From Angustibacter luteus (lineage in GTDB: Bacteria > Actinomycetota > Actinomycetes > Actinomycetales > Angustibacteraceae): a stretch of DNA of 64,000 nt. Each line of letters begins with the position of its first letter. Within the stretch, counting starts at the first letter, position 1. The stretch is taken from positions 1,178,001-1,242,000 of the forward strand of contig NZ_BAABFP010000002.1 of assembly GCF_039541115.1 (NCBI RefSeq), in the 5' to 3' direction. This document shows positions 8,494 through 59,949 of this stretch, piece by piece. The notes beneath the pieces are model-generated. The model worked only from the letters and a program-made list of their open reading frames with translations, did not search any database and was not told where the DNA came from. The translations under genes and the position numbers were made by a program.

Positions 8494-8531
8494 GTCCACA
8501 ACCCTACCGACCCGCCGCCACCGCGTTCCCA

Positions 8532-8590
8532 CACCATTCGCGCTTCACGGGGCTATGGGGGCCCGAAAAGCACCTCAAGCGCGAATGGTG
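8532..8590. repeat. Dispersed palindromic element, family B, copy 1
   Basis: CACCATTCGCGCTT ... AAGCGCGAATGGTG perfect 14-bp inverted arms. Matches 54588-54650. Confidence 0.7.
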
Positions 8591-8604
8591 CGTGGTGGGT
8601 CGGG

Positions 8605-9501
8605 TCAGGTCAGGTCGAGCGCGAGGTCGAGGATCGGGCTGGAGTGGGTGAGCCCACCGACGGACAGGTAGTCGACACCGGTCTCCCCGTAGTCACGGGC
8701 GTGCTCCAGCGTCAGCCCGCCGGTCCCCTCGATCTCGACCCGGTCCGGCGTCGCCGCCCGCACCGCCGCCACGGTCTCGGCGAGCAACGGCACGGACATG
8801 TTGTCGCACAACAGGAACCGCGCCCCGGCAGCGATCGCCTCGAGCGCCTCGTCCAGGGTGGTGACCTCGACCTGCACCTCGACGTCCGGGTAGCGCGCCC
8901 GCACCGCCTCGTACGCCGCGCGCACCGAACCGGCCGCGAGCTTGTGGTTGTCCTTGACCATCGCGACGTCGTACAGGCCCATCCGCTTGTTCGTCCCGCC
9001 ACCGCAGCGCACCGCGTACTTCTCGAGGGCGCGCAGCCCCGGTGTGGTCTTGCGGGTGTCCAGCACGGTGGCGCCGGTGCCCGCCAGCTCGTCGGCCCAG
9101 AGCCGGGTGTGCGTCGCCACGCCGGACATGCGGCACACCAGGTTCAGCGCCGTCCGCTCCCCGACCAGCAGCACCTGGGTGGCGCCGCTGACCTCGACCA
9201 GCACGTCCCCGCGCCGCACCCGGTCGCCGTCCGCCGCCCGCACCACGACGTGAGCCGCCGCCACACCGAGCCGCGCGGCGACGTCGTCCCAGACCAGGCC
9301 GAACAGCGCCAGCCCGGCCACCACCCCATCGGCCCGGGCGACGACGTGGGCCGTCGACTGCTGGCTGAGGGCGATAGTGGCGGACGACGTCACGTCCACC
9401 CCGTCGGGCCCGCCGAGGTCCTCGTCCAGAGCGCGCCGGACGACGTCCCGCACCGCCGCCGGGTCCAACCCGGTCGCCTGCAACGTGTCGTCCCCTCTCA
9501 T
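8605..9501 (-). CDS. nadC: Nicotinate-nucleotide diphosphorylase (quinolinate phosphoribosyltransferase)
   Basis: ERTALN, DTRKTTPGLRALEKYAV, MVKDNH, LCDNM and GVDYLSVGGLTHS. Confidence 0.96.
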   Translation of the reverse strand: MRGDDTLQATGLDPAAVRDVVRRALDEDLGGPDGVDVTSSATIALSQQSTAHVVARADGVVAGLALFGLVWDDVAARLGVAAAHVVVRAADGDRVRRGDVLVEVSGATQVLLVGERTALNLVCRMSGVATHTRLWADELAGTGATVLDTRKTTPGLRALEKYAVRCGGGTNKRMGLYDVAMVKDNHKLAAGSVRAAYEAVRARYPDVEVQVEVTTLDEALEAIAAGARFLLCDNMSVPLLAETVAAVRAATPDRVEIEGTGGLTLEHARDYGETGVDYLSVGGLTHSSPILDLALDLT

Positions 9502-23717: not shown

Positions 23718-24890
23718 GTGGCCATCCGGCTCGAGGGCGTGAGCAAGACGTACGCCGACGGGACCCAGGCCGTGCAGGAGCTGGACCTGGCCGTCGAGCC
23801 GGGTGAGCTGGTCGCGCTGGTCGGTCCGAGCGGCTGCGGCAAGTCGACGACGCTGCGCATGGTGAACCGGTTGATCGAGCCGACGGCGGGCCGGATCGTG
23901 GTGGGCGACACCGACGTGACCCGCACCGACCCGGTCGTCGCCCGGCGGGACATGGGGTACGTGATCCAGCAGGTCGGCCTGTTCCCGCACCAGACGGTGC
24001 GGGACAACATCGCGACCGTGCCGCGGCTGGTGGGCTGGAACAAGGCGCGGACCGCCGACCGGGTGACGGAGATGCTGGAGCTCGTCGGGCTCGACCCGGA
24101 CACCTACGCCGGGCGGTACCCGCACGAGCTGTCGGGCGGCCAGCGCCAGCGCGTCGGCGTCGCTCGCGCGCTGGCCGCGGACCCGCCGGTGCTGCTGATG
24201 GACGAGCCGTTCGGCGCCGTCGACCCGATCGCCCGCGACCGGCTCCAGGCGCAGTTCCGGTCCATCCAGGCCCAGCTCGGCAAGACGGTGCTGTTCGTGA
24301 CGCACGACATCGACGAGGCGGTGCGGCTGGCCGATCGGATCGCGGTGTTCAGCGTGGGCGGCCGGCTCGAGCAGTTCGCCGACCCGGCCACTGTGCTGGG
24401 GGCGCCGGCGACCGCGTTCGTCGCCGACTTCGTGGGCTCGGACCGCGGGCTGCGCCGCCTGGCGGTGACCCCCATCGAGCCGGACGACCTGGAGCACCCG
24501 CCCACCGTGAGCCCGCAGCAGCCGCTCGCGCAGGCGCGCGCCGTCATCGACCGGGCACCCGAGCCGTACGCCGTGGTCGTGGACGACGAGGGCCGGCTGC
24601 GCGGCTGGGTGGGCGTGCGCGAGTGCGTCGGCGACGGCACCGTGGCCGACCGGATGCGCCGGTTCGACGAGACGGTGGAGGTCGGCGACACGTTGCGCCG
24701 GGCGCTGGCCGAGATCGTCCAGCACGACGCCGGCTGGCTGCCGGTGCTGGACGGCGACGAGCGCTACCAGGGCGTGCTCACCCCGACGTCCGTCTACACC
24801 GCGTTGCGCCGGCACCTGCCGGAGGGCGCTGCCACCCCGGAGGCCACCCCGGAGGCCACCCAGGAAACCGCCGAGGACGTCACCGCCTAG
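23718..24890 (+). CDS. Osmoprotectant ABC ATP-binding protein with C-terminal CBS pair
   Basis: [35 protein letters not shown] and CBS-like VVDDEGRLRG / LPVLD. Confidence 0.93.
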   Translation: MAIRLEGVSKTYADGTQAVQELDLAVEPGELVALVGPSGCGKSTTLRMVNRLIEPTAGRIVVGDTDVTRTDPVVARRDMGYVIQQVGLFPHQTVRDNIATVPRLVGWNKARTADRVTEMLELVGLDPDTYAGRYPHELSGGQRQRVGVARALAADPPVLLMDEPFGAVDPIARDRLQAQFRSIQAQLGKTVLFVTHDIDEAVRLADRIAVFSVGGRLEQFADPATVLGAPATAFVADFVGSDRGLRRLAVTPIEPDDLEHPPTVSPQQPLAQARAVIDRAPEPYAVVVDDEGRLRGWVGVRECVGDGTVADRMRRFDETVEVGDTLRRALAEIVQHDAGWLPVLDGDERYQGVLTPTSVYTALRRHLPEGAATPEATPEATQETAEDVTA

Positions 24891-25939
24891 CGAGTGGTGC
24901 GGCGGGCGGCCTCGTCGGACTCGTCAGCCTCGTCGGCCTCGGCGGGGGCAGCGGGGGCGGTGCCGCGCACCTGCGGGCCGTGCCGCAGCAGGTCGCTGGC
25001 CAAGCCGGCGGTGAGCACGCCCAAGGCGAGCAGGGTCAGCGCCTGCTGCCACGCCGTCCAGCCGAGCGGCCGCATGGCCAGGTGCGCCAGCAGGCCGGCG
25101 ACCAGGCCCCGGCCGACCACCGCGATGGCTCCGACGAGCACCGTGTCGTCGCGCGGGCTCGTCGTCCGGGACAGCCGCCGCAGCAGCGCCACGACGGCCG
25201 CCAACCCGACGACGTACAGGCCGACCAGGGCCGGCGTGCGGTCCGGCACCGCGGCCATCAGCAGCCCGCCGCCGAGGACGCTGAGCGCCGCGCTCACCCG
25301 GCAGGTGACGACGCGGCCGTGCCGGACCAGGAACGTCCGCTTGCCGAGCAGCGCGTCGCCGCGAACGTCCCGGAAGTCCTTCAGGAGCAGCCGGCCGATC
25401 ACCGCTGCGTAGAGGCCGCCGAGCAGCACCAGGTCGGTGCGCCGGACGTCCCCGCCGCCCGCGAGCAGCCCCACCAGGTACGGGACGCCGACCACGTTCA
25501 GCGGCAGCAACAACGACGCGACGGCGCCCCGCTTCGACAGCCGCAGCGGCGGCAGCGAGTACGCGGCGCCCACCAGCAGCCCGACCAGCAGCACCGCGAG
25601 CACCCGCCAGCCCAGCGCGGCGGCAGCACCCAGCGCCAGGACGCCGCCCACGACGGCGACGACCACGAGGTCGGCCGGCGCGGAGCCGGAGGCGAGCGGA
25701 CGGCGGCGGTCACCGGGCAGGTTGATCCGGTCGACCTCGGCGTCGGCCAGGTCGTTGAGCACCACGGAGACGAGGAGGTAGCCGACGACGACCACGAGCG
25801 CACCGGCCACCAGCCAGAGTCGCTGCGCGTTGCCGTGCTGGGCCAGGCCGATGCAGGCGTAGCTGCCCAGCAGCAGGACCAGCGCGGGCCGGGCCATGAG
25901 GACGACGAGCCGCACCCGAGCGGCCACCCAGCCGCTCAC
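24887..25939 (-). CDS. UbiA family prenyltransferase
   Basis: NDLADAEVDRIN..RRPLASG, YSLPPLRL and KDFRDVRGDALLGKRT, with many TM helices. Confidence 0.88.
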   Translation of the reverse strand: MSGWVAARVRLVVLMARPALVLLLGSYACIGLAQHGNAQRLWLVAGALVVVVGYLLVSVVLNDLADAEVDRINLPGDRRRPLASGSAPADLVVVAVVGGVLALGAAAALGWRVLAVLLVGLLVGAAYSLPPLRLSKRGAVASLLLPLNVVGVPYLVGLLAGGGDVRRTDLVLLGGLYAAVIGRLLLKDFRDVRGDALLGKRTFLVRHGRVVTCRVSAALSVLGGGLLMAAVPDRTPALVGLYVVGLAAVVALLRRLSRTTSPRDDTVLVGAIAVVGRGLVAGLLAHLAMRPLGWTAWQQALTLLALGVLTAGLASDLLRHGPQVRGTAPAAPAEADEADESDEAARRTTR

Positions 25940-26103
25940 TTGTTGTCCGCCCAGCTGTTGATCGCGACCATGAACAGCACGGCGCCGGCGACCACGACCA
26001 GTCCGGTCACGCCCAGCACCACGGCCAGCACGAGGCCGGCGATCTGCCACCCGCTGCGTGGCCGACGACCCTGCGGCGGATCCGGCACGACGTTCTGCGA
26101 CAC
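25936..26103 (-). CDS. Small single-pass membrane protein (55 aa), absent from the ORF track
   Basis: VSQNVVPDPPQGRRPRSGWQIAGLVLAVVLGVTGLVVVAGAVLFMVAINSWADNK*. GAAGGG upstream. Stop overlaps the UbiA start (GTGA). Confidence 0.7.
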   Translation of the reverse strand: MSQNVVPDPPQGRRPRSGWQIAGLVLAVVLGVTGLVVVAGAVLFMVAINSWADNK

Positions 26104-27827: not shown

Positions 27828-30065
27828 TCAGTGCTGCTGCGCGGGCAACCGCCGCTCGAGCGCCGCGGGCATCCACCAGTTGCGCCGTCCGAGCAGCGTC
27901 ATCGCCGAGGGCAGCAGCACGGCCCGCACGACGGTCGCGTCGATCAGCACCGCCACCGCCAGGCCGACGCCGAGCTGCTTGAACTCCAGCAGCGACAGCG
28001 TCCCGAAGATGCTGAACACCCCGACCATGACGGCCGCCGCACTGGTCACGACCCCGGCGGACGACGTCACCCCGCGGGCCACCGCCACCTTGGTCGGCAG
28101 GCCGGAGTCGTGCGCCTCGCGGATCCGGCTGACGACGAACACGTGGTAGTCCATGGACAGGCCGAACAGCACCACGAACAGGAACAGCGGCAACCAGTCG
28201 ATCACCACGCCACCGGACTGGAAGCCCAGCAGCTGGTGGCCGAGCCCGTGCTGGAAGACCAGCACCAGGACCCCGTAGGCCGCACCGACGGACAGCAGGT
28301 TCAGCACCACCGCGGTGGCCGCCACGACGACCGAGCGGAACGCGAACACCAGCACCACGAAGGTCAGGCCGAGGACGAACGCCATGACCCACGGCAGGTG
28401 AGCGCGCATCGACGAGGCGAAGTCCGCCGAGCCCGCGGTCGGACCGGTCACCAGGACCTGCGTGCCCGGGACCGACACGGCCGCCGCGAACGGCGGAACC
28501 AGCGTGTCCCGCAACGTGGTGAGGGACGCCTGCGCCGGCTTCCCGCTGAAGTCCCCGGTCATCGGGACGTCGATCGTCGCCGTCCGGCCGTCCGGTGCCA
28601 GCACGGGGTGGACGTCGTCCAGCCCGGTGAACTGCCCGGTGGCCCGGGCGTCGGCGACCAGGCCGGCCACCCCGGCGTCCAGCGCCTTGGCGTCCAGCGG
28701 CTGGTCGGAGTGCACGACCACGGTGTGCGCGAAGCCGGTCTGCGGGAAGGCCGCCGTCATCGCGTCGTACGTCTTCATGATCGGGATGGAGCGGGGCAGC
28801 GAGTCCGCGCCGGCCTCGCCGGTGCGCATGCCCAGCGCGGGCAGGGCGAGCGCCACCATGGCCGCGCCGGCCAGCACCAGCGAGATGGCCGGGCGGTGCA
28901 GCACGACCCGCATCACGGCGGGCCAGAAGCGGCCCTCGCCGTCGGGGCGGCGCAGCCGGTGCACGAGCGGGATCCGCGGCCGGTCGACCTTGTCGCCGAA
29001 CGCGGCGAGCATGGCCGGCAACGCGGTCAGCGAGCCGAGCACGGCCACCGCGACGACCAGCATCGTGCCGACGGCCATCGAGACGAACGTGGCGTCGCCG
29101 GACAGCAGCAGCCCCGACATCGCGATGAACACGGCCAGCCCGGAGACCACGACGGCGCGGCCGCTGGTCTGCGCGGCGATCTCGATGGCGTCCCGACGAC
29201 CGGCACCCTTCGCGCGCTCCTCACGAGCTCGGCGCACGTAGAACAGCGAGTAGTCGACCCCCACGGCCATGCCGATCAGCAGGATCACGCTGTTCAGCGA
29301 GTCCATCACCGGCACCACGTGCGAGACCAGGGCGCTCAGGCCGATCCCCGCCATCACGGCCGACAGCGCCAGGATCACCGGCACCCCTGCGGCGATGAGG
29401 GCGCCGAAGGTCAGGATGAGGATGCCCAGGGTGATCGGCAGGCTGAGCTTCTCGGCGCGCGAGAAGTCCTTGGACACCTGGCCGCCGATCGCCTTGTCGA
29501 GCGAGGCGTCACCGACCTGGTCGACGCGCAGGTCCGGGTGCGCCCCGGCCACGCCGGCGGTCACCGCCTGCACCGCGGGCACCTGGTCGGCGGCGACGTC
29601 GTACGCCGCGTTGCCGGTCTTGCCGTTCACGTTCAGCACCACCGGCAGCAGCGCGGAACGGCCGTCCGCCGAGCGCACCAGGTCGCCGACCTGGGACACC
29701 TGCGGCATCCCGGTGAGCTTGCTGCGCAGCTCGGTGCCGACCGCGGTCGCGGTCGCGGCGTCCAGGCTCCCACTGCGCGCCTGGACGAGGATCCGCTCGG
29801 TCGGGGTGGCCGGGTAGCCGGCCTGCTCGACGATCTTGTCGGCCTTGCCGGACTCCCCCGTGCCGGTCTCGGCGCCTTCCAGCAGGCGGGTGCCGGCCAG
29901 CTGGCCGCCGACGAACACGACGGCGACGAACAGGAACCAGCCGATCAGGGCCTTGGCCTTGTGCCGGGTGCTCCACCGAGCGAGGGTCAGGACCACGCCG
30001 GCGGACGCCGGTCGCGGGGTGGGGTCGGACGGTTGGGTCTCTGCGGGTGCTGCGGTGAGCGTCAT
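27828..30065 (-). CDS. MMPL family (RND) transporter
   Basis: GMAVGVDYSLFYVRRAREE, LFGLSMDYHVF and IDATVVRAVLLP, in two TM repeats. Confidence 0.94.
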   Translation of the reverse strand: MTLTAAPAETQPSDPTPRPASAGVVLTLARWSTRHKAKALIGWFLFVAVVFVGGQLAGTRLLEGAETGTGESGKADKIVEQAGYPATPTERILVQARSGSLDAATATAVGTELRSKLTGMPQVSQVGDLVRSADGRSALLPVVLNVNGKTGNAAYDVAADQVPAVQAVTAGVAGAHPDLRVDQVGDASLDKAIGGQVSKDFSRAEKLSLPITLGILILTFGALIAAGVPVILALSAVMAGIGLSALVSHVVPVMDSLNSVILLIGMAVGVDYSLFYVRRAREERAKGAGRRDAIEIAAQTSGRAVVVSGLAVFIAMSGLLLSGDATFVSMAVGTMLVVAVAVLGSLTALPAMLAAFGDKVDRPRIPLVHRLRRPDGEGRFWPAVMRVVLHRPAISLVLAGAAMVALALPALGMRTGEAGADSLPRSIPIMKTYDAMTAAFPQTGFAHTVVVHSDQPLDAKALDAGVAGLVADARATGQFTGLDDVHPVLAPDGRTATIDVPMTGDFSGKPAQASLTTLRDTLVPPFAAAVSVPGTQVLVTGPTAGSADFASSMRAHLPWVMAFVLGLTFVVLVFAFRSVVVAATAVVLNLLSVGAAYGVLVLVFQHGLGHQLLGFQSGGVVIDWLPLFLFVVLFGLSMDYHVFVVSRIREAHDSGLPTKVAVARGVTSSAGVVTSAAAVMVGVFSIFGTLSLLEFKQLGVGLAVAVLIDATVVRAVLLPSAMTLLGRRNWWMPAALERRLPAQQH

Positions 30066-30173
30066 CGTGGTTCCCCTAGCTCGCGCCTCGATTGCTCAGC
30101 GGCGCAGTCGTTTTCGGACACCACCACCGTGGCCGCCGCGACCCCTGCGCGTCTGTCCGGGAAGCGCCCCAAT

Positions 30174-30192
30174 GGGGGTAGGGGTAACCCCC
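30174..30192. promoter_or_regulatory. Putative response-regulator site between MMPL and the two-component operon
   Basis: GGGGTA-GGGGTAACCCC: a direct repeat combined with a palindrome in the divergent intergenic region. Confidence 0.4.
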
Positions 30193-30252
30193 GGTTCGAT
30201 GTGGCGGCCAGCGTCATGGCGGCTCAGGGTCGCGGCTCCCTACGGTGGGTCC

Positions 30253-31509
30253 ATGCGCAATTCCTGGGGGTCGAGGACGTGGCTGGCACTGGCCTACGTC
30301 ACGCTCGGCCTGCCCGTCGGCATCGTGACCTTCACGGTCGTGCTGGTCGGCCTCGCGCTCGGCATCGGCCTGCTGCCGCTCTTCGGCACCGGGGTGGTCG
30401 TGCTGGTCGCGACCGTCTACACGGCGCGCGGGATGGCGGCCTTCGAGCGTGGCCGGGCGACGATGTTCCTCGGCGTACACCTGCCCGACCGCCCGCGGCT
30501 CTCGCCGGAAGGTGCGAACGCCGGACGCCGGGCGTGGGCGCTGATCTCCTCGCGCGCATCGTGGAAGGAGATCGCCTACTGCCTGCTGATGCTGCCGATC
30601 GGCACGGTGTTCTACAGCCTGGCCGTGTCGGTCTGGGCGATCGGGCTGGCCGGCGTCCTGCTCCCCGCCTACGGGTTCGCGCTGCCCGGGGGCGAGGTCG
30701 TGACCTGGCTGCACTGGACGCCGTGGCTCGAGGTCCTGGCGGGCTTCGGGATCGGCCTGCTGGCGCTGCAGCTCGCGCCGCTGCTGACCGTGGCGCTGGC
30801 CGACGCGCAGCTGGCGCTGGTCCGATCGCTGCTAGCGCCCAGCGGCGCCGAGGTGCTGCAGGCGAAGGTCTCCTCGCTCACCGAGTCCCGCGCCCGGGTG
30901 GTCGATGCGGCGGACGCCGAACGCCGCCGGATCGAGCGGGACCTGCACGACGGCGCGCAGCAGCACCTGGTGTCGTTGGCGATGAACCTGGGGATGGCCA
31001 AGGAGAAGATGGACTCCGACCCCGAGGCGGCCCGCGAGCTGGTGACCCGCGCGCACCAGGAGGCCAAGGACTCGATCACCGAGCTGCGCAACGTGATCCG
31101 CGGTGTCTACCCGGCCGTGCTGACGGACCGCGGGCTGGACGCCGCGCTGTCCGCGCTGGCCGCGCGCTCCCCGGTCCCGGTGCGGCTCGACGTCCGCCTC
31201 TCGCGTCGCCCCGGACCGACCGCCGAGGCCATCGCCTACTTCGTGGTCTCCGAGGCGCTCACCAACGTGGCCCGGCACTCCGGCGCCAAGCAGGCGTCGG
31301 TGCACGTCGAGCTGCGCGAGGACGCCACCGGCCGCGACCGCCTGCAGGTCGCGGTCGTGGACGATGGTCACGGCGGCGCCACGGAGGGGGCCGGCAGCGG
31401 CCTGACCGGCCTGCGGGACCGCGTCCGCGCCGTGGACGGGACGTTCCAGCTGATCAGCCCCCAGGGCGTCGGCACGACGATTGCCGTGGAGGTGCCGTGC
31501 GAGTCGTGA
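30253..31509 (+). CDS. Sensor histidine kinase (HisKA_3) with membrane sensor domain
   Basis: ERRRIERDLHDGAQQ, EALTNVARH, DDGHGG and GSGLTGL. Confidence 0.94.
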   Translation: MRNSWGSRTWLALAYVTLGLPVGIVTFTVVLVGLALGIGLLPLFGTGVVVLVATVYTARGMAAFERGRATMFLGVHLPDRPRLSPEGANAGRRAWALISSRASWKEIAYCLLMLPIGTVFYSLAVSVWAIGLAGVLLPAYGFALPGGEVVTWLHWTPWLEVLAGFGIGLLALQLAPLLTVALADAQLALVRSLLAPSGAEVLQAKVSSLTESRARVVDAADAERRRIERDLHDGAQQHLVSLAMNLGMAKEKMDSDPEAARELVTRAHQEAKDSITELRNVIRGVYPAVLTDRGLDAALSALAARSPVPVRLDVRLSRRPGPTAEAIAYFVVSEALTNVARHSGAKQASVHVELREDATGRDRLQVAVVDDGHGGATEGAGSGLTGLRDRVRAVDGTFQLISPQGVGTTIAVEVPCES

Positions 31510-32144
31510 TCGCCGAGGACTCGGTGCTGCTTCGTGAAGGCATCATCCGGCTGCTGACGGACGCCGGGCTCGACGTCGTCGGCGCCGTCGACGAGCCGGA
31601 GGCGTTGCTGCGCAGCGTGGACGAGCTGCTGCCGGACATCTGCATCGTCGACATCCGGATGCCGCCGACGCACACCGACGAGGGCATCCGGGCCGCGCTG
31701 GTGATCCGCGCGCAGCACCCGGACGTCGCGGTGCTGGTGCTGAGCCAGTACGTCGAGGAGCGCTACGCCACCGACCTGATCGCCTCGGACACCCGCGGGG
31801 TCGGCTACCTGCTCAAGGACCGGGTGGCGGACGTGCGCGAGTTCGTGGACGCCGTCCGGCGGGTCGGCGAGGGCGGCACCGCACTGGACCCCGAGGTGGT
31901 CTCCCAGCTGCTGGTCCGCAGCCGGCGCACCGACCCGCTCGGTGGGTTGACCCCGCGCGAGGGCGACGTGATCCGGCTGATGGCCGAAGGCCGCTCCAAC
32001 CAAGGGATCGCGGCGGAGCTGGTGGTCAGCGAGGGAGCCGTCGAGAAGCACGTCAGCTCGATCTTCCTGAAGCTCGCGCTGCCGCCGGCCGACCAGGACC
32101 ACCGCCGCGTGCTGGCGGTCCTGCGCTACCTGGAAGGTTCGTGA
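31497..32144 (+). CDS. NarL/LuxR family response regulator
   Basis: VVIAEDS, VDIRMPP, YLLK and LTPRE..MAEGRSN..VEKHV HTH. Confidence 0.95.
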   Translation: MRVVIAEDSVLLREGIIRLLTDAGLDVVGAVDEPEALLRSVDELLPDICIVDIRMPPTHTDEGIRAALVIRAQHPDVAVLVLSQYVEERYATDLIASDTRGVGYLLKDRVADVREFVDAVRRVGEGGTALDPEVVSQLLVRSRRTDPLGGLTPREGDVIRLMAEGRSNQGIAAELVVSEGAVEKHVSSIFLKLALPPADQDHRRVLAVLRYLEGS

Positions 32145-32908
32145 TGACGGTCCACGACGCCCCGCAGCTGACCCAACCCGCCGACCCGCCACCGGCCGGC
32201 GGCAGCGCCCGACCGCTGCTGATCGGTCTGGGCATCGCGTTCGCGGTGCTCTCGATCGTCGCGGGCACGCTGAACGTGATCGGCTCCATCGGGCGGGACT
32301 CGGTGCAGCGCCAGGCCAGCTACCAGGGCATCCGGGTGGTCGACGTCGACGTGTCGGCCGAGTCGGTGCAGATCGTCGCCGGCCCGGACGACGTCACCCG
32401 GCTCGACCGCACCATCGGCTGGTCCCTGCAGAAGCCGAGCTTCAGCGAGCGGCAGGAGGGTGACCGGCTGGTCATCCGCTCGAGCTGCGGGATCACGTTC
32501 GGCCGCGGCTGCTCCGGCAAGGTGCGCCTCGTCGTGCCGGCCGACGTCCAGGTGCACGCGCACAGCTCGGGTGGTTACGTCGGGGCCACCGGGCTGTCCG
32601 GCCCGCTGGACCTCTCGTCCAGCGCCGGGCACGTGGAGGGCGTCCGGCTGGCGTCCGCCACCGTCGAGGCCGACTCGTCGGCCGGGTCGGTGTCGCTGAC
32701 CTTCGCGGTCGCGCCCACCGACGTGAAGGCCACGGGCAGCGCCGGCTCGGTCGAGGTGCTGCTGCCACCCGGGGACGAGGCGTACCGGGTCGACGCGGGT
32801 TCCAGCGCCGGCTCCAGCGAGGTGTCGGTGCGGACCGACCCGGACTCGTCGCGGCGGATCGTCGCCCACTCCAGCGCTGGCTCGGTCGAGGTTTCTTACT
32901 CTGAGTGA
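32141..32908 (+). CDS. DUF4097 family beta-strand repeat protein
   Basis: N-terminal TM followed by repeated (S/G)SAGSV units. Coupled to the response regulator. Confidence 0.82.
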   Translation: MMTVHDAPQLTQPADPPPAGGSARPLLIGLGIAFAVLSIVAGTLNVIGSIGRDSVQRQASYQGIRVVDVDVSAESVQIVAGPDDVTRLDRTIGWSLQKPSFSERQEGDRLVIRSSCGITFGRGCSGKVRLVVPADVQVHAHSSGGYVGATGLSGPLDLSSSAGHVEGVRLASATVEADSSAGSVSLTFAVAPTDVKATGSAGSVEVLLPPGDEAYRVDAGSSAGSSEVSVRTDPDSSRRIVAHSSAGSVEVSYSE

Positions 32909-33044
32909 TCACTTGTGTGCATGGTGGTCGGATTTTGCATCGATTGAGCACTCTTCGTAACGAACCTTCTACTCAGAGGCGTTTTGCTGACAAGATCTCA
33001 TTACCGGCTCGGGGCAATGCCCGGGCCCTTGTCATGGAGTGAAC

Positions 33045-33386
33045 GTGCGCGACCTCGCCCCTGAGATCTGTCGGCAACGCCTCGTCGTCGAGGGGTTGTG
33101 CCATGCCCCCATCGACGCGCCGGAGATCCGCAAGTACCTCTCTGAGCTCTCGTCGGCGATCGACATGGTCTCGCTGATGGAGCCGGTGACCCACCAGTCC
33201 CCGCTCTACGGCTGGGCCGGCTGGATCCACTGGGAGACCTCCGGCGCGCACTTCTACGCCTGGGACGTGCCGCGCCTGTTCTTCAGCGTCGACATCTACG
33301 CCTGCAAGCCCTTCTCCGCCCAGACCGTGCTGGACCTGACGCAGGCCTCGTTCGACGCCTACGACCTCGTGCACAAGGAGTTCTGA
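33045..33386 (+). CDS. S-adenosylmethionine decarboxylase family (pyruvoyl-dependent) proenzyme, divergent
   Basis: About 113 aa. GWAGWIHWETSGAHFYAW aligns with class 1B G.S....aESH.s.HTW, followed by SVDIYACKPF. RBS GGAG 5 nt before GTG 33045 (alternative start 33039). Confidence 0.75.
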   Translation: MRDLAPEICRQRLVVEGLCHAPIDAPEIRKYLSELSSAIDMVSLMEPVTHQSPLYGWAGWIHWETSGAHFYAWDVPRLFFSVDIYACKPFSAQTVLDLTQASFDAYDLVHKEF

Positions 33387-34156
33387 TGGCGGCTCGGTAC
33401 TGGATGCACTTCGACGCGCGGGGCGACCTGCTGGAGTCGGCGCGCCAGTGCGAGGCCGAGGTGTTCCACCGGTGGTTCGGCAACACCCGCGCCGAGCTCG
33501 ACGAGGAGTACGGCAGCTACGAGGGTGACTCGATCTTCCTCGTCCTGGCCGACGAGGCGGACGAGGTGGTGGCCGCCGTCCGCCTCATCGCCCCCGGCCC
33601 CTCCGGCTTCAAGACCCTGGACGACGTCGCCCGAGCCCCGTGGCAGGTGGACGGCGTCCGCTCGGCCGCAGCGGCGGGGCTCGACCTGTCCCGCACCTGG
33701 GAGGTCGGCACCCTCTGCGTCCGTCCCGGTGTGGCCGGCAGCAGCCGCCTCTCGCTCGCGCTGTACCACGGCCTCATGGTGGTGGCCCAGGTCAACGGCA
33801 TGACCTCGTTCATCGCGGTGCTGGACGAACGGGTCCGCCGGCTCCTGGCCTCGGTCGGCATCACCACGCGAGCGCTGCCGGGGACGAGCACCGCCCCCTA
33901 CCTCGGCTCGGCCCGGAGCACGCCGGTCTACTCGCACTTCGCCGCCATGCTGGACGCCCAGCGCCGGGACCTGCCCGACGCCTACCGGCTGGTCACCCTC
34001 GGCATCGGGCTGGACGGCATCGTCGTCCCCGACCGCGAGTCGTTCCGCCGACGCCAACCCGAGCTCGTGCTGGACCTGGCACCGCTGGAGGCCGGCGAGG
34101 CCCTGGACGCGGACCGGCTCGTCAGCGAGCAGCTACCCGATCCGCGGCGCGGGTAG
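33386..34156 (+). CDS. GNAT-fold acyltransferase, LuxI (AHL synthase)/FeeM-like
   Basis: EVF..WFG, ELDEEYGSYE, VAAVRLIAP and TWEVGTLCV follow the LuxI motif order. TGATG overlap and AAGGAG RBS. Confidence 0.7.
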   Translation: MAARYWMHFDARGDLLESARQCEAEVFHRWFGNTRAELDEEYGSYEGDSIFLVLADEADEVVAAVRLIAPGPSGFKTLDDVARAPWQVDGVRSAAAAGLDLSRTWEVGTLCVRPGVAGSSRLSLALYHGLMVVAQVNGMTSFIAVLDERVRRLLASVGITTRALPGTSTAPYLGSARSTPVYSHFAAMLDAQRRDLPDAYRLVTLGIGLDGIVVPDRESFRRRQPELVLDLAPLEAGEALDADRLVSEQLPDPRRG

Positions 34157-36430
34157 GACCTTGCCACGGGTGGGCGGCACCTGCGTCGCCCACCGGCGCA
34201 CCCAGGGATCCACGTCGCTCAGCGGCATGGGCCGAGCGACGTGGTACCCCTGCAGGACGTCGACGCCCATCTCGACGAGGGCGAGCGCCGTCGCCTCGTC
34301 CTCGACCCCCTCGGCGACCAGCCGCATCCCCATGGCGTGCGCCATGTTGGTCGTCGTCTCGACGATGAGCCGGGTCCGTTCGTCGGTCAGCAGGGTCGCG
34401 ACGAACGAGCGGTCCATCTTGAGCTCCTGGACCGGCAGGTCGCGCAGGTACGCCAGCGAGGAGAACCCCGTGCCGTAGTCGTCGATGGCGACCTGGACCT
34501 GGTGCTCTCGCAGCTCGTAGAGGGCGTCCCGGGCGCGCTCGGGATCGGACAGGAACGAGTCCTCGGTCACCTCGATCAGCAGCCGGTCCCCCGGCAGCCC
34601 CGCCTCCTCTAGGGCGAGGAACAGGTGCGGCAGCAGCTGGCCACCCAGCAGCTCCACCGGCGCGCAGTTCATCGCCACCCGGAAGGTCCAGCCGCTGGCG
34701 GCGAAGGCCCGGGCGTCGCGGACGGCCTGTCGGGCGACCCACTCGGACAGCATCGGCATCAGGCCCGCGCGGCGCGCGTCCGGCAGGAACTCCATCGGCC
34801 CGAGCAGCCCCTCGCTGGGATGCTGCCAGCGCACGAGCGCCTCCATCGCGATGAGCCGCCGCGTCAACGCGTCGACCTGCGGCTGGTACCACAGCACCAG
34901 CTGGCCCTGCGTGATCGCGGCCCGCAGCTCCTCGCTGCGCTGCAACCGCTGCCGGGTGAAGACCTCCTGGGAGGGGTCGTACAGCAACGCCCCCGCCCGG
35001 GCCTGCTTCGCCTCGTACATCGCCACGTCCGCGCGGCGGAGCAGGTCGGTCGCGGAGCGGTCCCCGTCCCGGCGCACGGTGATGCCGATCGAGGCCCGGA
35101 TGGCCAGGTCGAGGTTGTCGATGTGCACCGCCGCGAGCAGCACCTGGCGCAGCTCCTGGGCGAGCTCGAGCAGCGCGAGCTCGTCGTCCCCCTGCGCCAG
35201 CACGGCGAACTCGTCGCCGCCGAGGCGCGCGACCAGCACGTCGTGCGGCAGCGTCGACTGCATGCGGTGCGCGACGGTGCGCAGCACCGCGTCGCCGGTG
35301 CCGTGACCCAGGCTGTCGTTGATGTCCTTGAAGCCGTCCAGGTCGAGCAGCATGAAGGCCAGCGGGTCCTGGCGGGCCAGACCCTCGTCGGTCGCGGTGA
35401 GCACGGCCCGCCGGTTGGGCAGCCCGGTCAGCTCGTCGGTCATGGATAGCCGGAGCGACTCCGCTGCGCCTCGGGCCTCCTTGAGGGCGAGCGTCATGCG
35501 ACCCCCGGCGCACACCAGGGTGACGATGGCCGGGACGGTGATGTACCAGCCGATCGTGCCCCCGGGGTGCAGGACGAGGGCCAGCAGCGCGACGGACGCC
35601 GCCGCGATCAGCATCCGCGAGCGCTGCAGGTCGGGCTTGGGGGCGAGCTCGGCGCGCTCGCGACGGCAGGCCGAACCGACCAGCAGCGCGAAGGCCCCGC
35701 CCCAGAGCACGTCCAGCAGCACGCTCGAGGAGTACGAGTCGGCCTTCAGGGACAGCATGAAGCTGGAGTCCGCGGCGGCGAGCGCGAGGAAGGCCACCGC
35801 CAGGCCGACCGTGCGCCGGGACCGGGTGCGGTGCCGCAGCATCATCTGCGCCAGCACGACGGTGGCCAGGACCAGGTCGATCAACGGGTACAGGATCGCC
35901 AGCAGCAGGGTGAGCCCGCCCCGGTCGAAGGTTCCGGCGAGCGGCTTGAGCACGAAGAAGCTCGCGACGCAGACCGCCGCACCGCAGACGACCGCGGCAT
36001 CGAGCCCGAGTGCGAGGGCAGGAAGTCGCGGCCGCGGCACGTCCAGCAGGAGGAAGGCGGCCATCCCCAGGTAGGAGGTGAGGTAGAAGATCTCTCCCGG
36101 CGCCGGGAAGGTCACGACGGAGACGGAGACGGCCTGGCTGGCGCTCACCATGGCCGAGCCGGCAGCCCACAGCGTGACGCCGGCCACCAGCACGAGCAGG
36201 GCGGTGCGGCGGCGGGGGTCGTTCCCGGCGACGACGAGCAGCCGGGTGAGCTGCAGCAGGAAGAACACCGTCAGGGTGACCACCAGGGCCGCGCGGATCG
36301 CCGGGCCGTCGGCGGATCCGGGGAGTACCAGGGTGGATCCGGTCCCGAGCGCCGCGACCGTGAGCGCGGCGGCGCCGAGCCGCCGTTGGGTCACGTCGGC
36401 CCGGGGCGTGGTCGCGCGGCCGTCTGCCAC
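34133..36430 (-). CDS. Membrane-bound diguanylate cyclase/phosphodiesterase (GGDEF-EAL)
   Basis: Multi-TM N-terminus, DELTGLPNRR, DLDGFKDINDSLGHGTGD, RLGGDEF, MEALVRW, IDDYGTGFSSL and VAEGVE..LQGY. Confidence 0.95.
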   Translation of the reverse strand: MADGRATTPRADVTQRRLGAAALTVAALGTGSTLVLPGSADGPAIRAALVVTLTVFFLLQLTRLLVVAGNDPRRRTALLVLVAGVTLWAAGSAMVSASQAVSVSVVTFPAPGEIFYLTSYLGMAAFLLLDVPRPRLPALALGLDAAVVCGAAVCVASFFVLKPLAGTFDRGGLTLLLAILYPLIDLVLATVVLAQMMLRHRTRSRRTVGLAVAFLALAAADSSFMLSLKADSYSSSVLLDVLWGGAFALLVGSACRRERAELAPKPDLQRSRMLIAAASVALLALVLHPGGTIGWYITVPAIVTLVCAGGRMTLALKEARGAAESLRLSMTDELTGLPNRRAVLTATDEGLARQDPLAFMLLDLDGFKDINDSLGHGTGDAVLRTVAHRMQSTLPHDVLVARLGGDEFAVLAQGDDELALLELAQELRQVLLAAVHIDNLDLAIRASIGITVRRDGDRSATDLLRRADVAMYEAKQARAGALLYDPSQEVFTRQRLQRSEELRAAITQGQLVLWYQPQVDALTRRLIAMEALVRWQHPSEGLLGPMEFLPDARRAGLMPMLSEWVARQAVRDARAFAASGWTFRVAMNCAPVELLGGQLLPHLFLALEEAGLPGDRLLIEVTEDSFLSDPERARDALYELREHQVQVAIDDYGTGFSSLAYLRDLPVQELKMDRSFVATLLTDERTRLIVETTTNMAHAMGMRLVAEGVEDEATALALVEMGVDVLQGYHVARPMPLSDVDPWVRRWATQVPPTRGKVLPAPRIG

Positions 36431-55005: not shown

Positions 55006-55812
55006 CTAGATGCGACCGCCCGCAGTGGACTCGCCGGACAGTCGCTGGCTGATGTAGATCGGCACGATCGACAGGATCACCAGCGCCGCGGCGACGACGT
55101 TGACCACGGGCGCCTGGTTCGGCCGGGACAGGTTCTGGAAGATCCAGATCGGCAGGGTCGTCACGCCGGGCGGCGCGGTGAACAGGGTCACCACGATCTC
55201 GTCGAAGCTGAGGCCGAAGGCGAGCAGCCCGCCGGCGAAGAACGCCCCACGCAGGTTCGGGAAGGTGATCCGGGCGAACGTCGTGAAGGTGTCCGCGCCG
55301 AGATCCATCGAGGCTTCCTCCAGTGAGGTGCCGAGGCGCCGCAACCGGGCGATGACGTTGTTGTAGATCACCACGATGCAGAACGTCGCGTGCGCGACCA
55401 CGACCGACCAGATGGACAGCTCGACCTGCAGGATGGTGCGGAACGCCGTCCGCAGGGCCAGCGCCGTCACGATGCCGGGCAGCGCGATCGGCAGGATCAC
55501 CAGCAGCGACAGGGTCTGCCGGCCGAAGAACGAGTAGCGGCTCAGCGCGAACGCCATCATCGCGCCGAGCACCATCGCGATGCCGGTCGCGATCAGGCCG
55601 ATGCGGACCGACGTCCAGATGGCGTCCCGGACCCCGGGATTGCCCCACACGCTCGTCCACCAGTGCGTCGTGTAGCTCCTGGGCGGCCAGGCGAAGACGG
55701 TGCTGGCGTTGAACGAGTTGATGACCACCACGGCCAGCGGCACGTAGATGAAGGCCAGCCCGAGGGCCATGGCCAGCCGCAGCGCCCAGCGTCCCCGTCC
55801 CGAGAAGCTCAC
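55006..55812 (-). CDS. Polyamine ABC transporter permease (PotC-like)
   Basis: LEEASMDLGA, SFDEIVVT and TLPIWI. Confidence 0.92.
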   Translation of the reverse strand: MSFSGRGRWALRLAMALGLAFIYVPLAVVVINSFNASTVFAWPPRSYTTHWWTSVWGNPGVRDAIWTSVRIGLIATGIAMVLGAMMAFALSRYSFFGRQTLSLLVILPIALPGIVTALALRTAFRTILQVELSIWSVVVAHATFCIVVIYNNVIARLRRLGTSLEEASMDLGADTFTTFARITFPNLRGAFFAGGLLAFGLSFDEIVVTLFTAPPGVTTLPIWIFQNLSRPNQAPVVNVVAAALVILSIVPIYISQRLSGESTAGGRI

Positions 55813-55822
55813 GACCGCCCCC

Positions 55823-56731
55823 TCACAGGTTGTCCAGCGCGCCGGAACGACGGATCACGGCCAGGTAGACCAGCATGATCGCGATCGGGATGAGCGCGAT
55901 GGTCGCCGCGAACGGCAGGTTGGCCGCGTAGTTCTGGTAGACGATGTTGCCGAGCATCTGGACCTTGCCGCCGACGATCTGCGCCGTGATGTAGTCGCCC
56001 AGGCTCAGCGAGAACGTGAAGATGGTGCCCGCGATGATCGACGGGTAGACCAACGGCAGGACGACGCTGCGGAACGTCCGCCACGGACGGGCGCCCAGGT
56101 CGCCGGACGCGTCCAGCAACGAGTCCGGCAGCCGCTCGAGGCCGGCGAACACGGGCAGGATCATGTACGGCAGCCACAGGTAGGTCAGCGTCAGCACGAT
56201 GGCGACCCGGCCGAAGCCGGGGCCGTCCAGCCCGAACGGCTGCAGCATCCACGCGATGACCCCCCGCCCGGGTTGCACCATCGCCTGCCAGGCGTAGACC
56301 TTGACCAGGTACGACGCCCACAGCGGCGTGATGACCAGGGCGAGCAGCAGGCCGCGGGAACGCCGCCGGGCGACCTTGGCCATGAAGAACGCCATCGGCA
56401 ACCCGATCACGATGCACAGCACCGTGACCGACGCGGCGATCCCCACCGTCAGCAGCGTGGCGCGCAGGTAGGCGGGTTCGGTGAAGACGTCGACCAGGTT
56501 GGCCGTGGTGAACGTGCGGACGACGGCGTTGGTGAACTCGTCGACGCTGAAGAACGCGGTGGACAGCAGCGAGAACACGGCGGCGAAGTAGATGACCGCC
56601 ATCCACGCCACGGGCGGCCCGACCAGACCGGCGAGCCGGGTGCGGTCGCTGCGGAACAGGTGCGCGGACAGCCGCCGCCGCACCGACCGGTGGGCCCGGT
56701 CGGTGCGGTCGACGTCGGTGATGCTGGCCAC
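55823..56731 (-). CDS. Polyamine ABC transporter permease (PotB-like)
   Basis: PLWASYLVKVYAW, LPYMILP and LLDASGDLGA. Confidence 0.92.
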   Translation of the reverse strand: MASITDVDRTDRAHRSVRRRLSAHLFRSDRTRLAGLVGPPVAWMAVIYFAAVFSLLSTAFFSVDEFTNAVVRTFTTANLVDVFTEPAYLRATLLTVGIAASVTVLCIVIGLPMAFFMAKVARRRSRGLLLALVITPLWASYLVKVYAWQAMVQPGRGVIAWMLQPFGLDGPGFGRVAIVLTLTYLWLPYMILPVFAGLERLPDSLLDASGDLGARPWRTFRSVVLPLVYPSIIAGTIFTFSLSLGDYITAQIVGGKVQMLGNIVYQNYAANLPFAATIALIPIAIMLVYLAVIRRSGALDNL

Positions 56732-56778
56732 GCTTCCTCACTTCGTGCGGGTGGTTCGGTGGTGACGCCGGCGAGCCG

Positions 56779-57981
56779 TCAGCTGCGCAGGGTGCTCCAG
56801 GCCTTCGTCCACTCCGAGTAGGGGATGCACTTGGTGTCGGACCGCCCGTCCAGGCAGTCGGACTGCGGCGTCGCCCAGAACCAGATCTTCTTGAAGTACG
56901 GCTCGTCGTCCGCGTGGAACACCTTGCAGTGCCCGGCGTCCGCGGTCTCGGTGCACGCCTTCAGGTTGGCCGGCGCCTCACCGAACCACTCGGCCACCTG
57001 GGCCTGCACCGACGGGGTGGTGATGTGGTTCATCCACAGGTACGAGCAGTTCGGGTGCGGGGACTTGGCGTCGACCATCCAGGTGTCGGCCCAGCCCGTC
57101 GAGCCCTCCTTGGGCAGCGTCGCGTCGACCTTGGCCTTGTCGGCCTGGGCGAGGTTGACGATGATCTGCCACGAGGTGCCCAGCACGTACGTCCCGTTGG
57201 TGAACGCCTTCTGCGCATCGGTGTACGACGCCCAGTAGCCGGCCAGGATCGACTTCTGCTGGGTGGCCAGCTCGACGGCCGCGTCGAACTGCTTCTTGTC
57301 CAGCGCGTACGGGTTCTTGATGCCCAGCTCGGGCTTGGTGGCCATCAGGTACAGCGCCGCGTCCGCCAGGTAGGTCGGCGAGTCGTAGGCGCCGATCTTG
57401 CCCTTGTACGGCGAGTTCTGGTCCCAGACGACGCTCCACGAGTCGGGCGCCGGGGTCACCTTGTCGGTCCGCCAGGACAGCAGGTTGGCGCCCCAGCCGT
57501 GCGGGATGCCGTAGTCGACGCCGTCCACCGAGTTCCACTGCTGGCCCTTCTGGAACGGCGCGATGTCGGCCCAGTTGGTGAGCAGGGAGGTGTTGACCGG
57601 CGCGACCTTGCCCGCGTAGATCATCCGCAGCGAGGAGTCGCCCGAGGCCGAGACGACGTCGAAGTCGCCGGTGCCCATCTTCTCGAACATCTCGTCCGAG
57701 GTGTTGGCGACCTGCACGTTGGCCTTGCAGCCCGTCGCCTTCTCGAACGGCGTCACCCAGTCGACGCTCGGGTCGGTCGTGCCGTTCTCCGCGTACCCGG
57801 CCCAGGCCAGGATGTTGATCGCACCCTCACCGGCGCCCAGGGTCTGCAGGGCCTTCAGGCTCGGCGGCTTCGCCCGCGTCCCGCCGCTGCTGCTGCTGTC
57901 GCTGTCGCTGCCGCACCCGGCCACCGCGAGAGCGAGGACTGCCGCCACCGCCACGCCGGCCGTGAGTCGCTTCGTCGCCAT
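56779..57981 (-). CDS. Polyamine/GABA-type ABC substrate-binding lipoprotein (PotD/YdcS-like)
   Basis: Lipobox VAGC, LAWAGY, FEKATGC, PHGWGAN and PKEGSTGWADTW. Confidence 0.9.
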   Translation of the reverse strand: MATKRLTAGVAVAAVLALAVAGCGSDSDSSSSGGTRAKPPSLKALQTLGAGEGAINILAWAGYAENGTTDPSVDWVTPFEKATGCKANVQVANTSDEMFEKMGTGDFDVVSASGDSSLRMIYAGKVAPVNTSLLTNWADIAPFQKGQQWNSVDGVDYGIPHGWGANLLSWRTDKVTPAPDSWSVVWDQNSPYKGKIGAYDSPTYLADAALYLMATKPELGIKNPYALDKKQFDAAVELATQQKSILAGYWASYTDAQKAFTNGTYVLGTSWQIIVNLAQADKAKVDATLPKEGSTGWADTWMVDAKSPHPNCSYLWMNHITTPSVQAQVAEWFGEAPANLKACTETADAGHCKVFHADDEPYFKKIWFWATPQSDCLDGRSDTKCIPYSEWTKAWSTLRS

Positions 57982-58017
57982 CTGCTTGCTCCTTCTCAGT
58001 TCGTGCATCACGTGCGA

Positions 58018-59076
<1,059 letters not shown>

Positions 59077-59084
59077 GGGCGAGA

Positions 59085-59102
59085 ACCTATGACTTCATAG
59101 GT
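59085..59102. promoter_or_regulatory. Perfect palindromic operator, likely bound by the divergent GntR/FadR regulator
   Basis: ACCTATGA-CT-TCATAGGT, overlapping the TAGGTT -10 of the ABC ATPase gene. Confidence 0.65.
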
Positions 59103-59175
59103 CAACGCGCAAGGGGTCCCGGGAACTCGACTCCGACCGGGACCGTTTCGTGACCGAACCCAGGCAGGAGGCGAC

Positions 59176-59949
59176 GTGACCGCGACCGGCAGCACGCCGT
59201 CCACTTCCTCACGCATGTCCCCCCGCGCCCTGGCCGGCGTCTTCTCCCCGCTCGAGCCGAGCGGACGCGCCGAGGCGGTCACCCGGCGCCTGTCCGATGC
59301 CATCGCGCTCGGCCTGTTGCCCGACACCCAGCAGCTGCCCAGTGAGACCGACCTCGCCGACCGGCTCGGCGTCTCCACCGTCACCGTTCGCGAGGCGCTC
59401 ACCGCGCTGCGCGAGCAGGGGCTGGTGCGCACCCGGCGCGGGCGGGGCGGAGGCTCCTTCGTCTGCGCCCCGGACGACGCCGCCACCTCCGTACTGCGGG
59501 CCCGGCTGCGCGGCTTTGGGCTGGGCGAGCTGCGCGACCTCGCCGACCACTACGCCGCGATCAGCGGGGCGTGCGCCAGGCTCGCCGCGGACCGCGCGGA
59601 CGAGCAGGACCTGGCCCGGCTCGAGGCGGCCACCGAGCGACTGGCCGGCGCGGCGGACGCCGGGGCGCGGCGACGGGCCGAGGGCCAGTACCACCTCGAG
59701 CTCGCGGCCGGCGCGCAGTCCCCGCGACTGACCCGCGAGGAGATCGCCCTGCAGAGCGCGGTGGGTCCGGTGCTCTGGCTGCCCTACTCGCAGGACGCGA
59801 CGATGCATGCCGCCTGCGAGGTGCACCGGCGCCTGCACCAGGCCGTCGCGGCGGGCGACGGGGCCGCAGCAAGGGCCGCCGCCGAGGACCACGTCGCACA
59901 GATGTTCACCGCGGTTCGCGATCTTCACCGCGAGGTCAGCCGCGGGTGA
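59176..59949 (+). CDS. GntR/FadR family transcriptional regulator
   Basis: LPSETDLADRLGVSTVTVREAL..GRGGGSFV and an FCD-like C-terminus. Confidence 0.93.
   Translation: MTATGSTPSTSSRMSPRALAGVFSPLEPSGRAEAVTRRLSDAIALGLLPDTQQLPSETDLADRLGVSTVTVREALTALREQGLVRTRRGRGGGSFVCAPDDAATSVLRARLRGFGLGELRDLADHYAAISGACARLAADRADEQDLARLEAATERLAGAADAGARRRAEGQYHLELAAGAQSPRLTREEIALQSAVGPVLWLPYSQDATMHAACEVHRRLHQAVAAGDGAAARAAAEDHVAQMFTAVRDLHREVSRG

Follow-up and report, generated by a model that had tools for sequence, protein, structure and literature searches.

A conserved gene module of actinobacteria and Patescibacteria joining an AdoMetDC-fold protein, a FeeM/LuxI-fold acyltransferase and a membrane sensor, with a predicted route to N-acyl amines

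Several described bacterial signaling systems keep the gene of a signal synthase beside that of a receptor. In the RpfF-RpfR system, which employs the Burkholderia diffusible signal factor (BDSF), the synthase gene lies beside the gene of a GGDEF-EAL receptor, and in the CqsA-CqsS and LqsA-LqsS systems it lies beside that of a polytopic membrane histidine kinase. Decarboxylation of an amino acid followed by N-acylation is in turn the common theme of the Xenorhabdus phenylethylamides, the clostridial fatty acid amides and the DesABC route to desferrioxamine; we know of no dedicated membrane sensor for these routes. Here we describe a three-gene locus from a 64,000-nucleotide stretch of the Angustibacter luteus genome (contig NZ_BAABFP010000002.1, positions 1,178,001 to 1,242,000; hereafter the window). 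It comprises genes for a small protein with the fold of S-adenosylmethionine decarboxylase (AdoMetDC; gene 1), for an acyltransferase with the fold of FeeM and LuxI (gene 2), and for a membrane GGDEF-EAL protein (gene 3). An initial annotation had suggested that the first protein makes an amine, which the second acylates into a small molecule sensed by the third.

The accessible parts of PMC3704786 and PMC9654057 give Arg24, Phe28 and Trp34 as absolutely conserved in LuxI enzymes, together with Glu101 and Arg104 as further criteria. For the decarboxylases, the accessible text of Li et al. (PMC10407285) describes His68 of Thermotoga maritima SpeD as conserved in all functional homologues, and AdoMetDC homologues of genomes lacking SpeE as often being arginine or ornithine decarboxylases.

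Gene 1 (33045..33386, forward strand) encodes a predicted pyruvoyl amino-acid decarboxylase of 113 amino acids, including the motif HWETSGAHFYAW, and was identified by the Pfam AdoMet_dc profile, a fold model and a phylogenetic tree. Its homologues start at the residue equivalent to the GTG at 33045, and a GGAG ribosome-binding site (33036..33039, forward strand) lies 5 nucleotides 5' of this codon; the codons of Ser66 (33240-33242) and Cys87 (33303-33305) follow on the same strand. Translational coupling to gene 2 is evident at 33375..33388 of the forward strand, where an AAGGAG site (33375-33380), the same bases of which encode a conserved Lys-Glu of gene 1, precedes a TGATG overlap of the gene 1 TGA (33384-33386) with the gene 2 ATG (33386-33388). 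Gene 2 (33386..34156, forward strand) encodes a FeeM/LuxI-fold protein of 256 amino acids, a predicted N-acyl amine synthase on the basis of its model, Foldseek matches and conservation. It overlaps tail-to-tail by 24 bp with gene 3 (34133..36430, reverse strand; 765 amino acids, start codon uncertain), a predicted sensor recognized by Pfam and hydrophobicity. The three genes, the TGATG coupling, the AAGGAG site and the convergent overlap all lie where the initial annotation had placed them, and its remark that the window lacks a spermidine synthase likewise holds, as none of the 34 window proteins scanned with Pfam matches Spermine_synth.

The trio, found across many actinobacteria and in some Patescibacteria, is a real and conserved module. 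Scanning 185,579 species genomes recovered 296 stretches with gene 1 relatives, and linkage was counted in the best 80 of these 296. Gene 2 lies directly downstream of gene 1 in all 80 loci, and a sensor gene is directly adjacent in 73 of the 75 with enough flank (60 convergent GGDEF-EAL genes, 8 upstream on the same strand, 1 divergent, and 4 HisKA_7TM kinases), the remaining loci being two without a sensor and five that end too soon. The co-localisation in other genomes on which the initial annotation depended was thereby borne out. An evenly drawn set of 301 genomes from the order gave the same picture: gene 1 occurs at 14 places, at each just upstream of gene 2, and gene 2 at 26, of which 24 adjoin the same sensor lineage. 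If the sensor is taken as a predicted receptor, the synthase-receptor gene linkage that serves as a criterion for quorum sensing is seen at these 73 of 75 loci and 24 of 26 places. The A. luteus genome holds 16 open reading frames (ORFs) with a long GGDEF-EAL match among roughly 4,000 genes, a number estimated from genome size, but in several families the pair is flanked by the same sensor lineage, and the linkage is therefore far above chance. No fourth recurring gene family was found among the conserved neighbors beyond local synteny.

The distribution of the module is patchy, because broader samples gave few loci: a phylum-wide set of 301 Actinomycetota genomes contained no gene 1 family member besides that of A. 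luteus itself and two weak SpeDC-type matches, and 301 Patescibacteria genomes contained two module loci, both already in the locus set. Among metagenome loci with an acyltransferase, 7 of 13 show a seven-transmembrane (7TM) kinase next, and 5 of the other 6 end soon after. In one genome a further copy of the trio, with its three genes on a single strand (L109:254-2725; G003:C1, about 658-661 kb), lies immediately next to genes for a gamma-butyrolactone synthase with an AfsA domain, an NAD-dependent reductase and a TetR regulator; this arrangement, seen once, places two signaling systems side by side. In L183:692-2120 one decarboxylase gene is followed by two tandem acyltransferase copies, and near the pair in the sensor-less locus L032 lies a short methyltransferase gene (8406-9110), labeled spermidine-synthase-like by eye. 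The acyltransferase of an Actinomycetales pair (G282:C48:41506-42654; L108, L171) groups with those of Patescibacteria and has neither a GGDEF-EAL nor a 7TM kinase neighbor, a placement for which transfer is a possible explanation. Finally, L087, from a record titled Jannaschia (Alphaproteobacteria), is nearly identical to the Aquipuribacter module, which suggests a mislabeled or mixed assembly.

The third position of the module is occupied by more than one kind of protein. Gene 3 itself has a GGDEF domain (residues 330-478) and an EAL domain (500-734) by Pfam, 8 hydrophobic peaks, and a polytopic unnamed N-terminal domain at about residues 15-320, for which no shared Pfam family was found across 22 members. 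The GGDEF motif is intact in 71 of 75 proteins of this kind, none of these 71 with an RxxD, and the EAL motif in 66 of 69; the GGDEF-EAL partners fall into three separately supported groups. In Patescibacteria the partner is a HisKA_7TM-GAF-histidine kinase directly downstream of the pair (4 loci), receiver-domain genes flank the pair, and in all three module-bearing genomes searched this adjacent kinase is the sole match to the 7TM kinase profile. Homology between HisKA_7TM and the actinobacterial membrane domain was tested and not detected. Three GGDEF-EAL groups and a dissimilar kinase domain together indicate that the pair kept a sensor through several exchanges. The system is thus wider than a circuit based on cyclic diguanylate (c-di-GMP), Patescibacteria having a histidine kinase in place of the GGDEF-EAL protein. 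The LuxR autoinducer-binding domain (PF03472) had no match in four of five genomes and one marginal, unlinked match in the fifth, and none among the conserved neighbors.

Gene 1 was correctly recognized as AdoMetDC-like, scoring 28.5 bits against Pfam AdoMet_dc (cut-off 25; a narrow pass); its closest named relative, at about 90% identity, comes from an Angustibacter genome. A structural model was built on the family alignment, whose first row, P0004, shares 98% identity with the window protein, and has a mean predicted local distance difference test score (pLDDT) of 95. It matches T. maritima SpeD with a template modeling (TM) score of 0.79, a Z-score of 13.9 and a root-mean-square deviation (rmsd) of 2.1 over 105 residues, and also the Aquifex aeolicus class 1b AdoMetDC. 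Searching the PDB by sequence, with gene 1 as well as both family profiles, returned nothing significant. In 167 distinct members of the family, drawn from genomes, metagenomes and phages, Arg10, Arg12, Glu16, Gly56, Trp63, Ser66, Gly67, Tyr71, Trp73, Asp83, Cys87 and Phe90 are invariant, and His62 and His69 are kept in 163 and 165, respectively. In the alignment with other SpeD homologues, Ser66 and Cys87 take the positions of the pyruvoyl Ser and the catalytic Cys, so that gene 1 displays the class 1b fold, pyruvoyl Ser, upstream Gly and catalytic Cys of bona fide AdoMetDCs.

Other signatures set the family apart. The Pro that marks true AdoMetDCs is absent, 158 of 167 members having Asp or Glu at a position located from the text alignment in the accessible supplement of PMC10407285. 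The Ser eight residues before the cleavage site is Ala or Cys, and there is neither a Pro+8 nor a Glu+9. Of the residues diagnostic of SpeDC (Gln, Thr, Phe, Tyr), at positions mapped from the same supplement alignment and SpeDC-like loci, Thr alone is present, in 97 of 167. SpeDA, as the accessible text delimits it, is an AdoMetDC-like core without the Pro, polyphyletic and devoid of a positive signature; the gene 1 family lacks the Pro but also the His, and the tree against which it was compared contained no characterised SpeDA. In this tree of 49 sequences the family forms its own clade with 100/100 support, on a branch of 3.8 changes per column, apart from SpeD-like and SpeDC-like sequences, and a derivation from SpeDC was dropped on account of this separate long branch. 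A single search puts the size of the clade at a minimum of 2,818 proteins. Because the family is a separate, uncharacterised clade, its substrate cannot be read from its relatives. Two Patescibacteria loci (L120, L132) encode SpeD homologues whose cleavage site has an unusual motif, DFSH/DYSD; one of the two has no His next to the Ser.

The gene 2 product models onto the LuxI/FeeM fold, as had been predicted (pLDDT 92; FeeM, Z 16.9, rmsd 2.7 over 178 residues; LasI, Z 16.1, rmsd 3.5 over 183 residues; RpaI, Z 15.0). Structure comparison ranks FeeM and LasI about equal, followed by RpaI, TofI and MesI, with ordinary GCN5-related N-acetyltransferases (GNATs) below; Foldseek places BjaI first among top ranks that also include RpaI, FeeM and LasI, and a language-model search yields FeeM and autoinducer-synthase clusters as well. 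The protein matches the TraI profile with 95% probability. Its Pfam matches are below threshold: FeeM at 16.9 bits (cut-off 27), an exosortase-associated acyltransferase, and Autoind_synth, likewise under its cut-off; even at E 0.05, 3 of 50 family members match Pfam FeeM. With 437 clusters at E 1e-30 in a profile search over 1.84 billion representatives, this is a LuxI/FeeM-fold family without a matching Pfam family above cut-off.

Conservation was examined in 101 of these enzymes (89 with the AdoMetDC-like gene, 12 without), the N-terminal register against LuxI being set by eye against TraI and by the range of the TraI hidden Markov model. Glu23 (101/101) and Arg66 are invariant, Asn33 is found in 88 and Thr109 in 95, and position 106, whose equivalence to the catalytic strand-4 Glu of FeeM rests on the TraI alignment, is Glu or Asp in 100. 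In the alignment with TraI, the family retains the strand-3 Arg as well as the strand-4 acid; Arg24 is replaced by Glu, Trp34 by Asn, Asp46 mostly by Gly, and Arg104 by Thr. The LuxI-like layout seen in the initial annotation is therefore present, but the LuxI signature residues are not. Judged from its model and signature, gene 2 is predicted to work like a LuxI/FeeM amide synthase and not as an N-acyl-homoserine lactone (AHL) synthase.

The most informative variation affects the first position. Among 12 acyltransferase loci without gene 1, a group II pyridoxal 5'-phosphate (PLP) decarboxylase is fused to the acyltransferase in one, lies directly upstream on the same strand in four, and in another is the first gene of a same-strand decarboxylase-sensor-acyltransferase run; none was found in the gene 1-bearing loci of the same search. 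Such a domain is also fused in front of the acyltransferase in 4 of 147 new representatives, among the matches listed, and the AdoMetDC-like domain in none of these 147. Long ORFs at acyltransferase loci had been considered as GC-rich artefacts, which was ruled out for one that is a real decarboxylase fusion. As five of the six acyltransferases at PLP-type loci form one clade and the sixth lies outside, the swap occurred in one or two events. Among solved structures, the fused domain is closest to bacterial pyridoxal-dependent decarboxylases, to the desferrioxamine lysine decarboxylase, and to decarboxylases of DOPA, tyrosine and tryptophan; its top match is 4OBU, which we take to be a tryptophan decarboxylase.

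The presence of an unrelated amino-acid decarboxylase in the same slot argues that the acyltransferase takes a decarboxylated amino acid, and not decarboxylated S-adenosylmethionine (dcSAM). The swap, as read from sequence, argues most strongly for such an acceptor, leaving its identity unfixed. Acceptor-side residues of the acyltransferase track the partner: Asn33 and Glu41 are found in 87 and 85 of the 89 enzymes with the AdoMetDC-like gene versus 1 and 2 of the 12 without it, losses that amount to about 5 changes on the tree, 2 of them forced by strong branches. Loss of gene 1 goes along with changes in the pocket residues Phe27, Asn33, Glu41 and Leu173, and the amides of the two module types, like the amines used for them, may therefore differ. 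Of the candidate amines dcSAM, agmatine and putrescine in the initial annotation, dcSAM is disfavored by the PLP swap at 6 of 12 loci, and gene 1 bears neither an AdoMetDC nor an ornithine-decarboxylase signature; the underlying module, the folds and the predicted logic of amine formation, acylation and membrane sensing withstand the refuting conditions that the annotation had set. The amine might be a biogenic amine from a free amino acid, and we would guess, weakly, at an aromatic rather than a basic one, as aromatic amino-acid decarboxylases are the nearest relatives of the PLP enzymes that take the place of gene 1.

Our preferred reading starts from what is directly observed in gene anatomy, folds, conserved linkage and the exchange of both decarboxylase and sensor. 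The gene 1 protein likely cleaves itself at Ser66 and decarboxylates an amino acid. The amine so formed is likely acylated by the gene 2 enzyme, and the N-acyl amine would be sensed by the adjacent membrane GGDEF-EAL protein, which would change c-di-GMP. We infer the catalysis, the order of the steps, the release of the product and its binding as a ligand, and assign a probability of roughly 0.55 to a decarboxylase, an N-acyl biogenic amine and a membrane sensor acting as one module. Several observations weigh against this reading. The position of T. maritima His68 (Ser+5) is Tyr71 in all 167 family members, and self-cleavage is on this account not assured; His69, two residues along the same strand, may take over processing. 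Neither decarboxylase is found nearby at 6 of the 12 acyltransferase loci without gene 1, and all 25 viral loci and 67 of 80 metagenome loci with a gene 1 homologue lack the acyltransferase, some of these loci being truncated. Of 31 places with a close sensor relative, defined by at least 150 bits on a profile to which linked members contributed, 7 are without an acyltransferase inside about 5 kb; three pair loci (L032, L063, G282) lack an adjacent sensor of these kinds. The module has neither an exporter nor a transcription factor as a conserved companion, and the linkage counts overstate independence, many loci being close kin.

Among other explanations, the one we rank next, though still improbable, is that the N-acyl amine is a surfactant, membrane lipid or antimicrobial, and that the signaling neighbor regulates its production or shares a lifestyle role without sensing it. 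FeeM-type enzymes produce N-acyl tyrosines with surface activity, and PilZ or cAMP-binding domains are present in some of these enzymes (PMC4897644, accessible in part), so that control can run from second messenger to synthase; the sensors without a synthase noted above would fit, as would the convergent arrangement, which precludes co-transcription in this genome. Gene 2 of A. luteus, however, has no separate regulatory domain, and the partner alternates between c-di-GMP enzymes and a histidine kinase, whose sole common trait is a polytopic membrane input domain. It is distinctly less probable that gene 1 is no working pyruvoyl decarboxylase at all, being a binding or regulatory subunit or an enzyme of other chemistry, or that the GNAT protein acylates a protein such as the sensor. 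The replacement of the processing His and of the Ser eight residues before the cleavage site, along with the very long family branch, would agree with this, but Ser66, Cys87, Gly56 and two His are invariant or nearly so, also in stand-alone phage and small-genome members, and a true PLP decarboxylase substitutes for gene 1.

The two remaining alternatives concern the amine itself. Polyamine or amine housekeeping, with decarboxylation of ornithine or arginine and acetylation of the diamine to detoxify or store it, appears to us very unlikely. It draws on the frequent arginine and ornithine decarboxylases among SpeE-less AdoMetDC homologues (PMC10407285, accessible text) and on the lack of a true SpeE in 10 genomes, which yielded no strong and two marginal PF01564 matches, that of A. 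luteus lying on another contig and rescoring at 22.5 bits. A second SpeD was likewise not found in the genomes searched, by a search insensitive to divergent members that missed gene 1 itself in four of five genomes. Yet only one of the four SpeDC diagnostic residues is present, polyamine acetyltransferases rank under FeeM and LuxI in fold searches, no polyamine gene is among the conserved neighbors, and the sensor is left unexplained. Least probable of all, in our estimate, is a true AdoMetDC whose dcSAM is acylated by the LuxI-like enzyme to an aminopropyl analogue of an acyl-homoserine lactone. The AdoMetDC fold and the top Foldseek ranks of BjaI and RpaI, coenzyme A-dependent AHL synthases, would suit this scheme, and so might the invariant Glu in place of LuxI Arg24, given a substrate without a carboxylate; against it stand the missing diagnostic Pro and following Glu of bona fide AdoMetDCs, the replaceability of gene 1 by a PLP amino-acid decarboxylase, and the absence of LuxI Trp34, Asp46 and Arg104.

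Besides viral contigs, stand-alone gene 1 homologues are found in bacteria with small genomes and in probable archaea, where no neighbor is constant; their occurrence indicates that the clade has its own function and entered the module by recruitment, as would suit an enzyme more than a dedicated subunit. On the viral contigs (L136-L160), a saccharopine-dehydrogenase-family gene lies near the gene 1 homologue in 13 of 25 and an aldehyde dehydrogenase in 12, possibly forming an amino-acid or polyamine auxiliary cluster; an annotated phage collection gave no match to gene 1. Phage AdoMetDC homologues that act on arginine or ornithine are described in the accessible part of PMC9992855, from which their membership in the gene 1 clade could not be told. 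In two viral loci (L140, L147) the homologue is fused behind an unannotated N-terminal domain, which is a separate upstream gene in L157.

In the window itself, the genes flanking the trio (DUF4097-like, PP2C phosphatase, Na/H antiporter) do not travel with it. Upstream lie a lone UbiA-family prenyltransferase (24890-26050) and an MMPL transporter divergent from a two-component pair (27831-32192), neither conserved with the module. An ATP-binding cassette (ABC) transporter (SBP_bac_8, TOBE-domain ATPase) with a GntR regulator (55009-59946), 19 kb away, is likewise not conserved with it; on its inferred label the transporter resembles a spermidine/putrescine uptake system. A riboswitch search with Rfam found none in the window or four loci, its sole match being one tRNA, and a promoter and terminator scan found nothing.

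To our knowledge, small-molecule signaling is poorly known in non-streptomycete actinobacteria and Patescibacteria, and hardly any of their membrane GGDEF-EAL proteins or 7TM kinases has an assigned ligand. Against this background the module offers a candidate ligand pathway for both types of protein, and the gene 1 family a predicted pyruvoyl-enzyme clade that breaks the His rule for self-processing; if our reading is true, a sensor-read fatty-acyl amine would be an undescribed kind of bacterial chemical signaling. We mention, as a speculation that we hold doubtful, a new class of autoinducers: N-acyl biogenic amines made by a previously unrecognised pyruvoyl decarboxylase clade with His-independent processing and a LuxI-fold amide synthase, and read via c-di-GMP in actinobacteria or a 7TM histidine kinase in Patescibacteria, such that Saccharibacteria, known epibionts of actinobacteria, might use or intercept the same chemical signals as their host phylum. 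No published description of the gene combination was found in the literature searched, outside which most subscription journals lie, consistent with the initial annotation's remark that no such system had been described. The module is real, widespread but patchy, exchangeable in its parts at both ends, and apparently undescribed.

Compared with known systems, gene 1 shares with class 1b AdoMetDC and its neofunctionalised forms SpeDA and SpeDC, as presented in the accessible parts of PMC10407285 and PMC9992855, the fold, Gly-10, pyruvoyl Ser and catalytic Cys, and with SpeDC (PMC10407285, accessible part) the ETS and CKxF motifs and the lack of a SpeE partner. Unlike these enzymes, its family has an invariant RQR, a Trp and two other His, and is partnered by an acyltransferase instead of polyamine genes. 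Gene 2 resembles FeeM-type synthases (PDB 2G0B; Nas343/Nas354 in the accessible part of PMC4897644) in its fold, the acid at the catalytic Glu position and links to cyclic-nucleotide signaling, but has 11% identity, scores below the Pfam cut-off, carries no PilZ or cyclic nucleotide monophosphate (cNMP) domain and is coupled to a decarboxylase, for which reason its predicted acceptor is an amine and not an amino acid. With the LuxI synthases LasI, BjaI, RpaI and TraI it has in common the fold (Z 14-16), Phe28, the strand-3 Arg, the strand-4 acid and an adjacent putative receptor gene; in contrast to them, Arg24, Trp34, Asp46 and Arg104 are replaced, a LuxR-type ligand domain had no match in four of five genomes and a marginal one in the fifth, and the hosts are Gram-positive bacteria and Patescibacteria. 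The microbial routes to N-acyl biogenic amines, including DesABC, differ in their amide-forming enzymes, and the module has no N-hydroxylase or siderophore synthetase. In architecture it resembles RpfF-RpfR, CqsA-CqsS and LqsA-LqsS, with a synthase gene adjoining that of a GGDEF-EAL protein or kinase; unlike these, it has unrelated synthases and input domains, a two-enzyme pathway, and one synthase family that is found with both receptor types.

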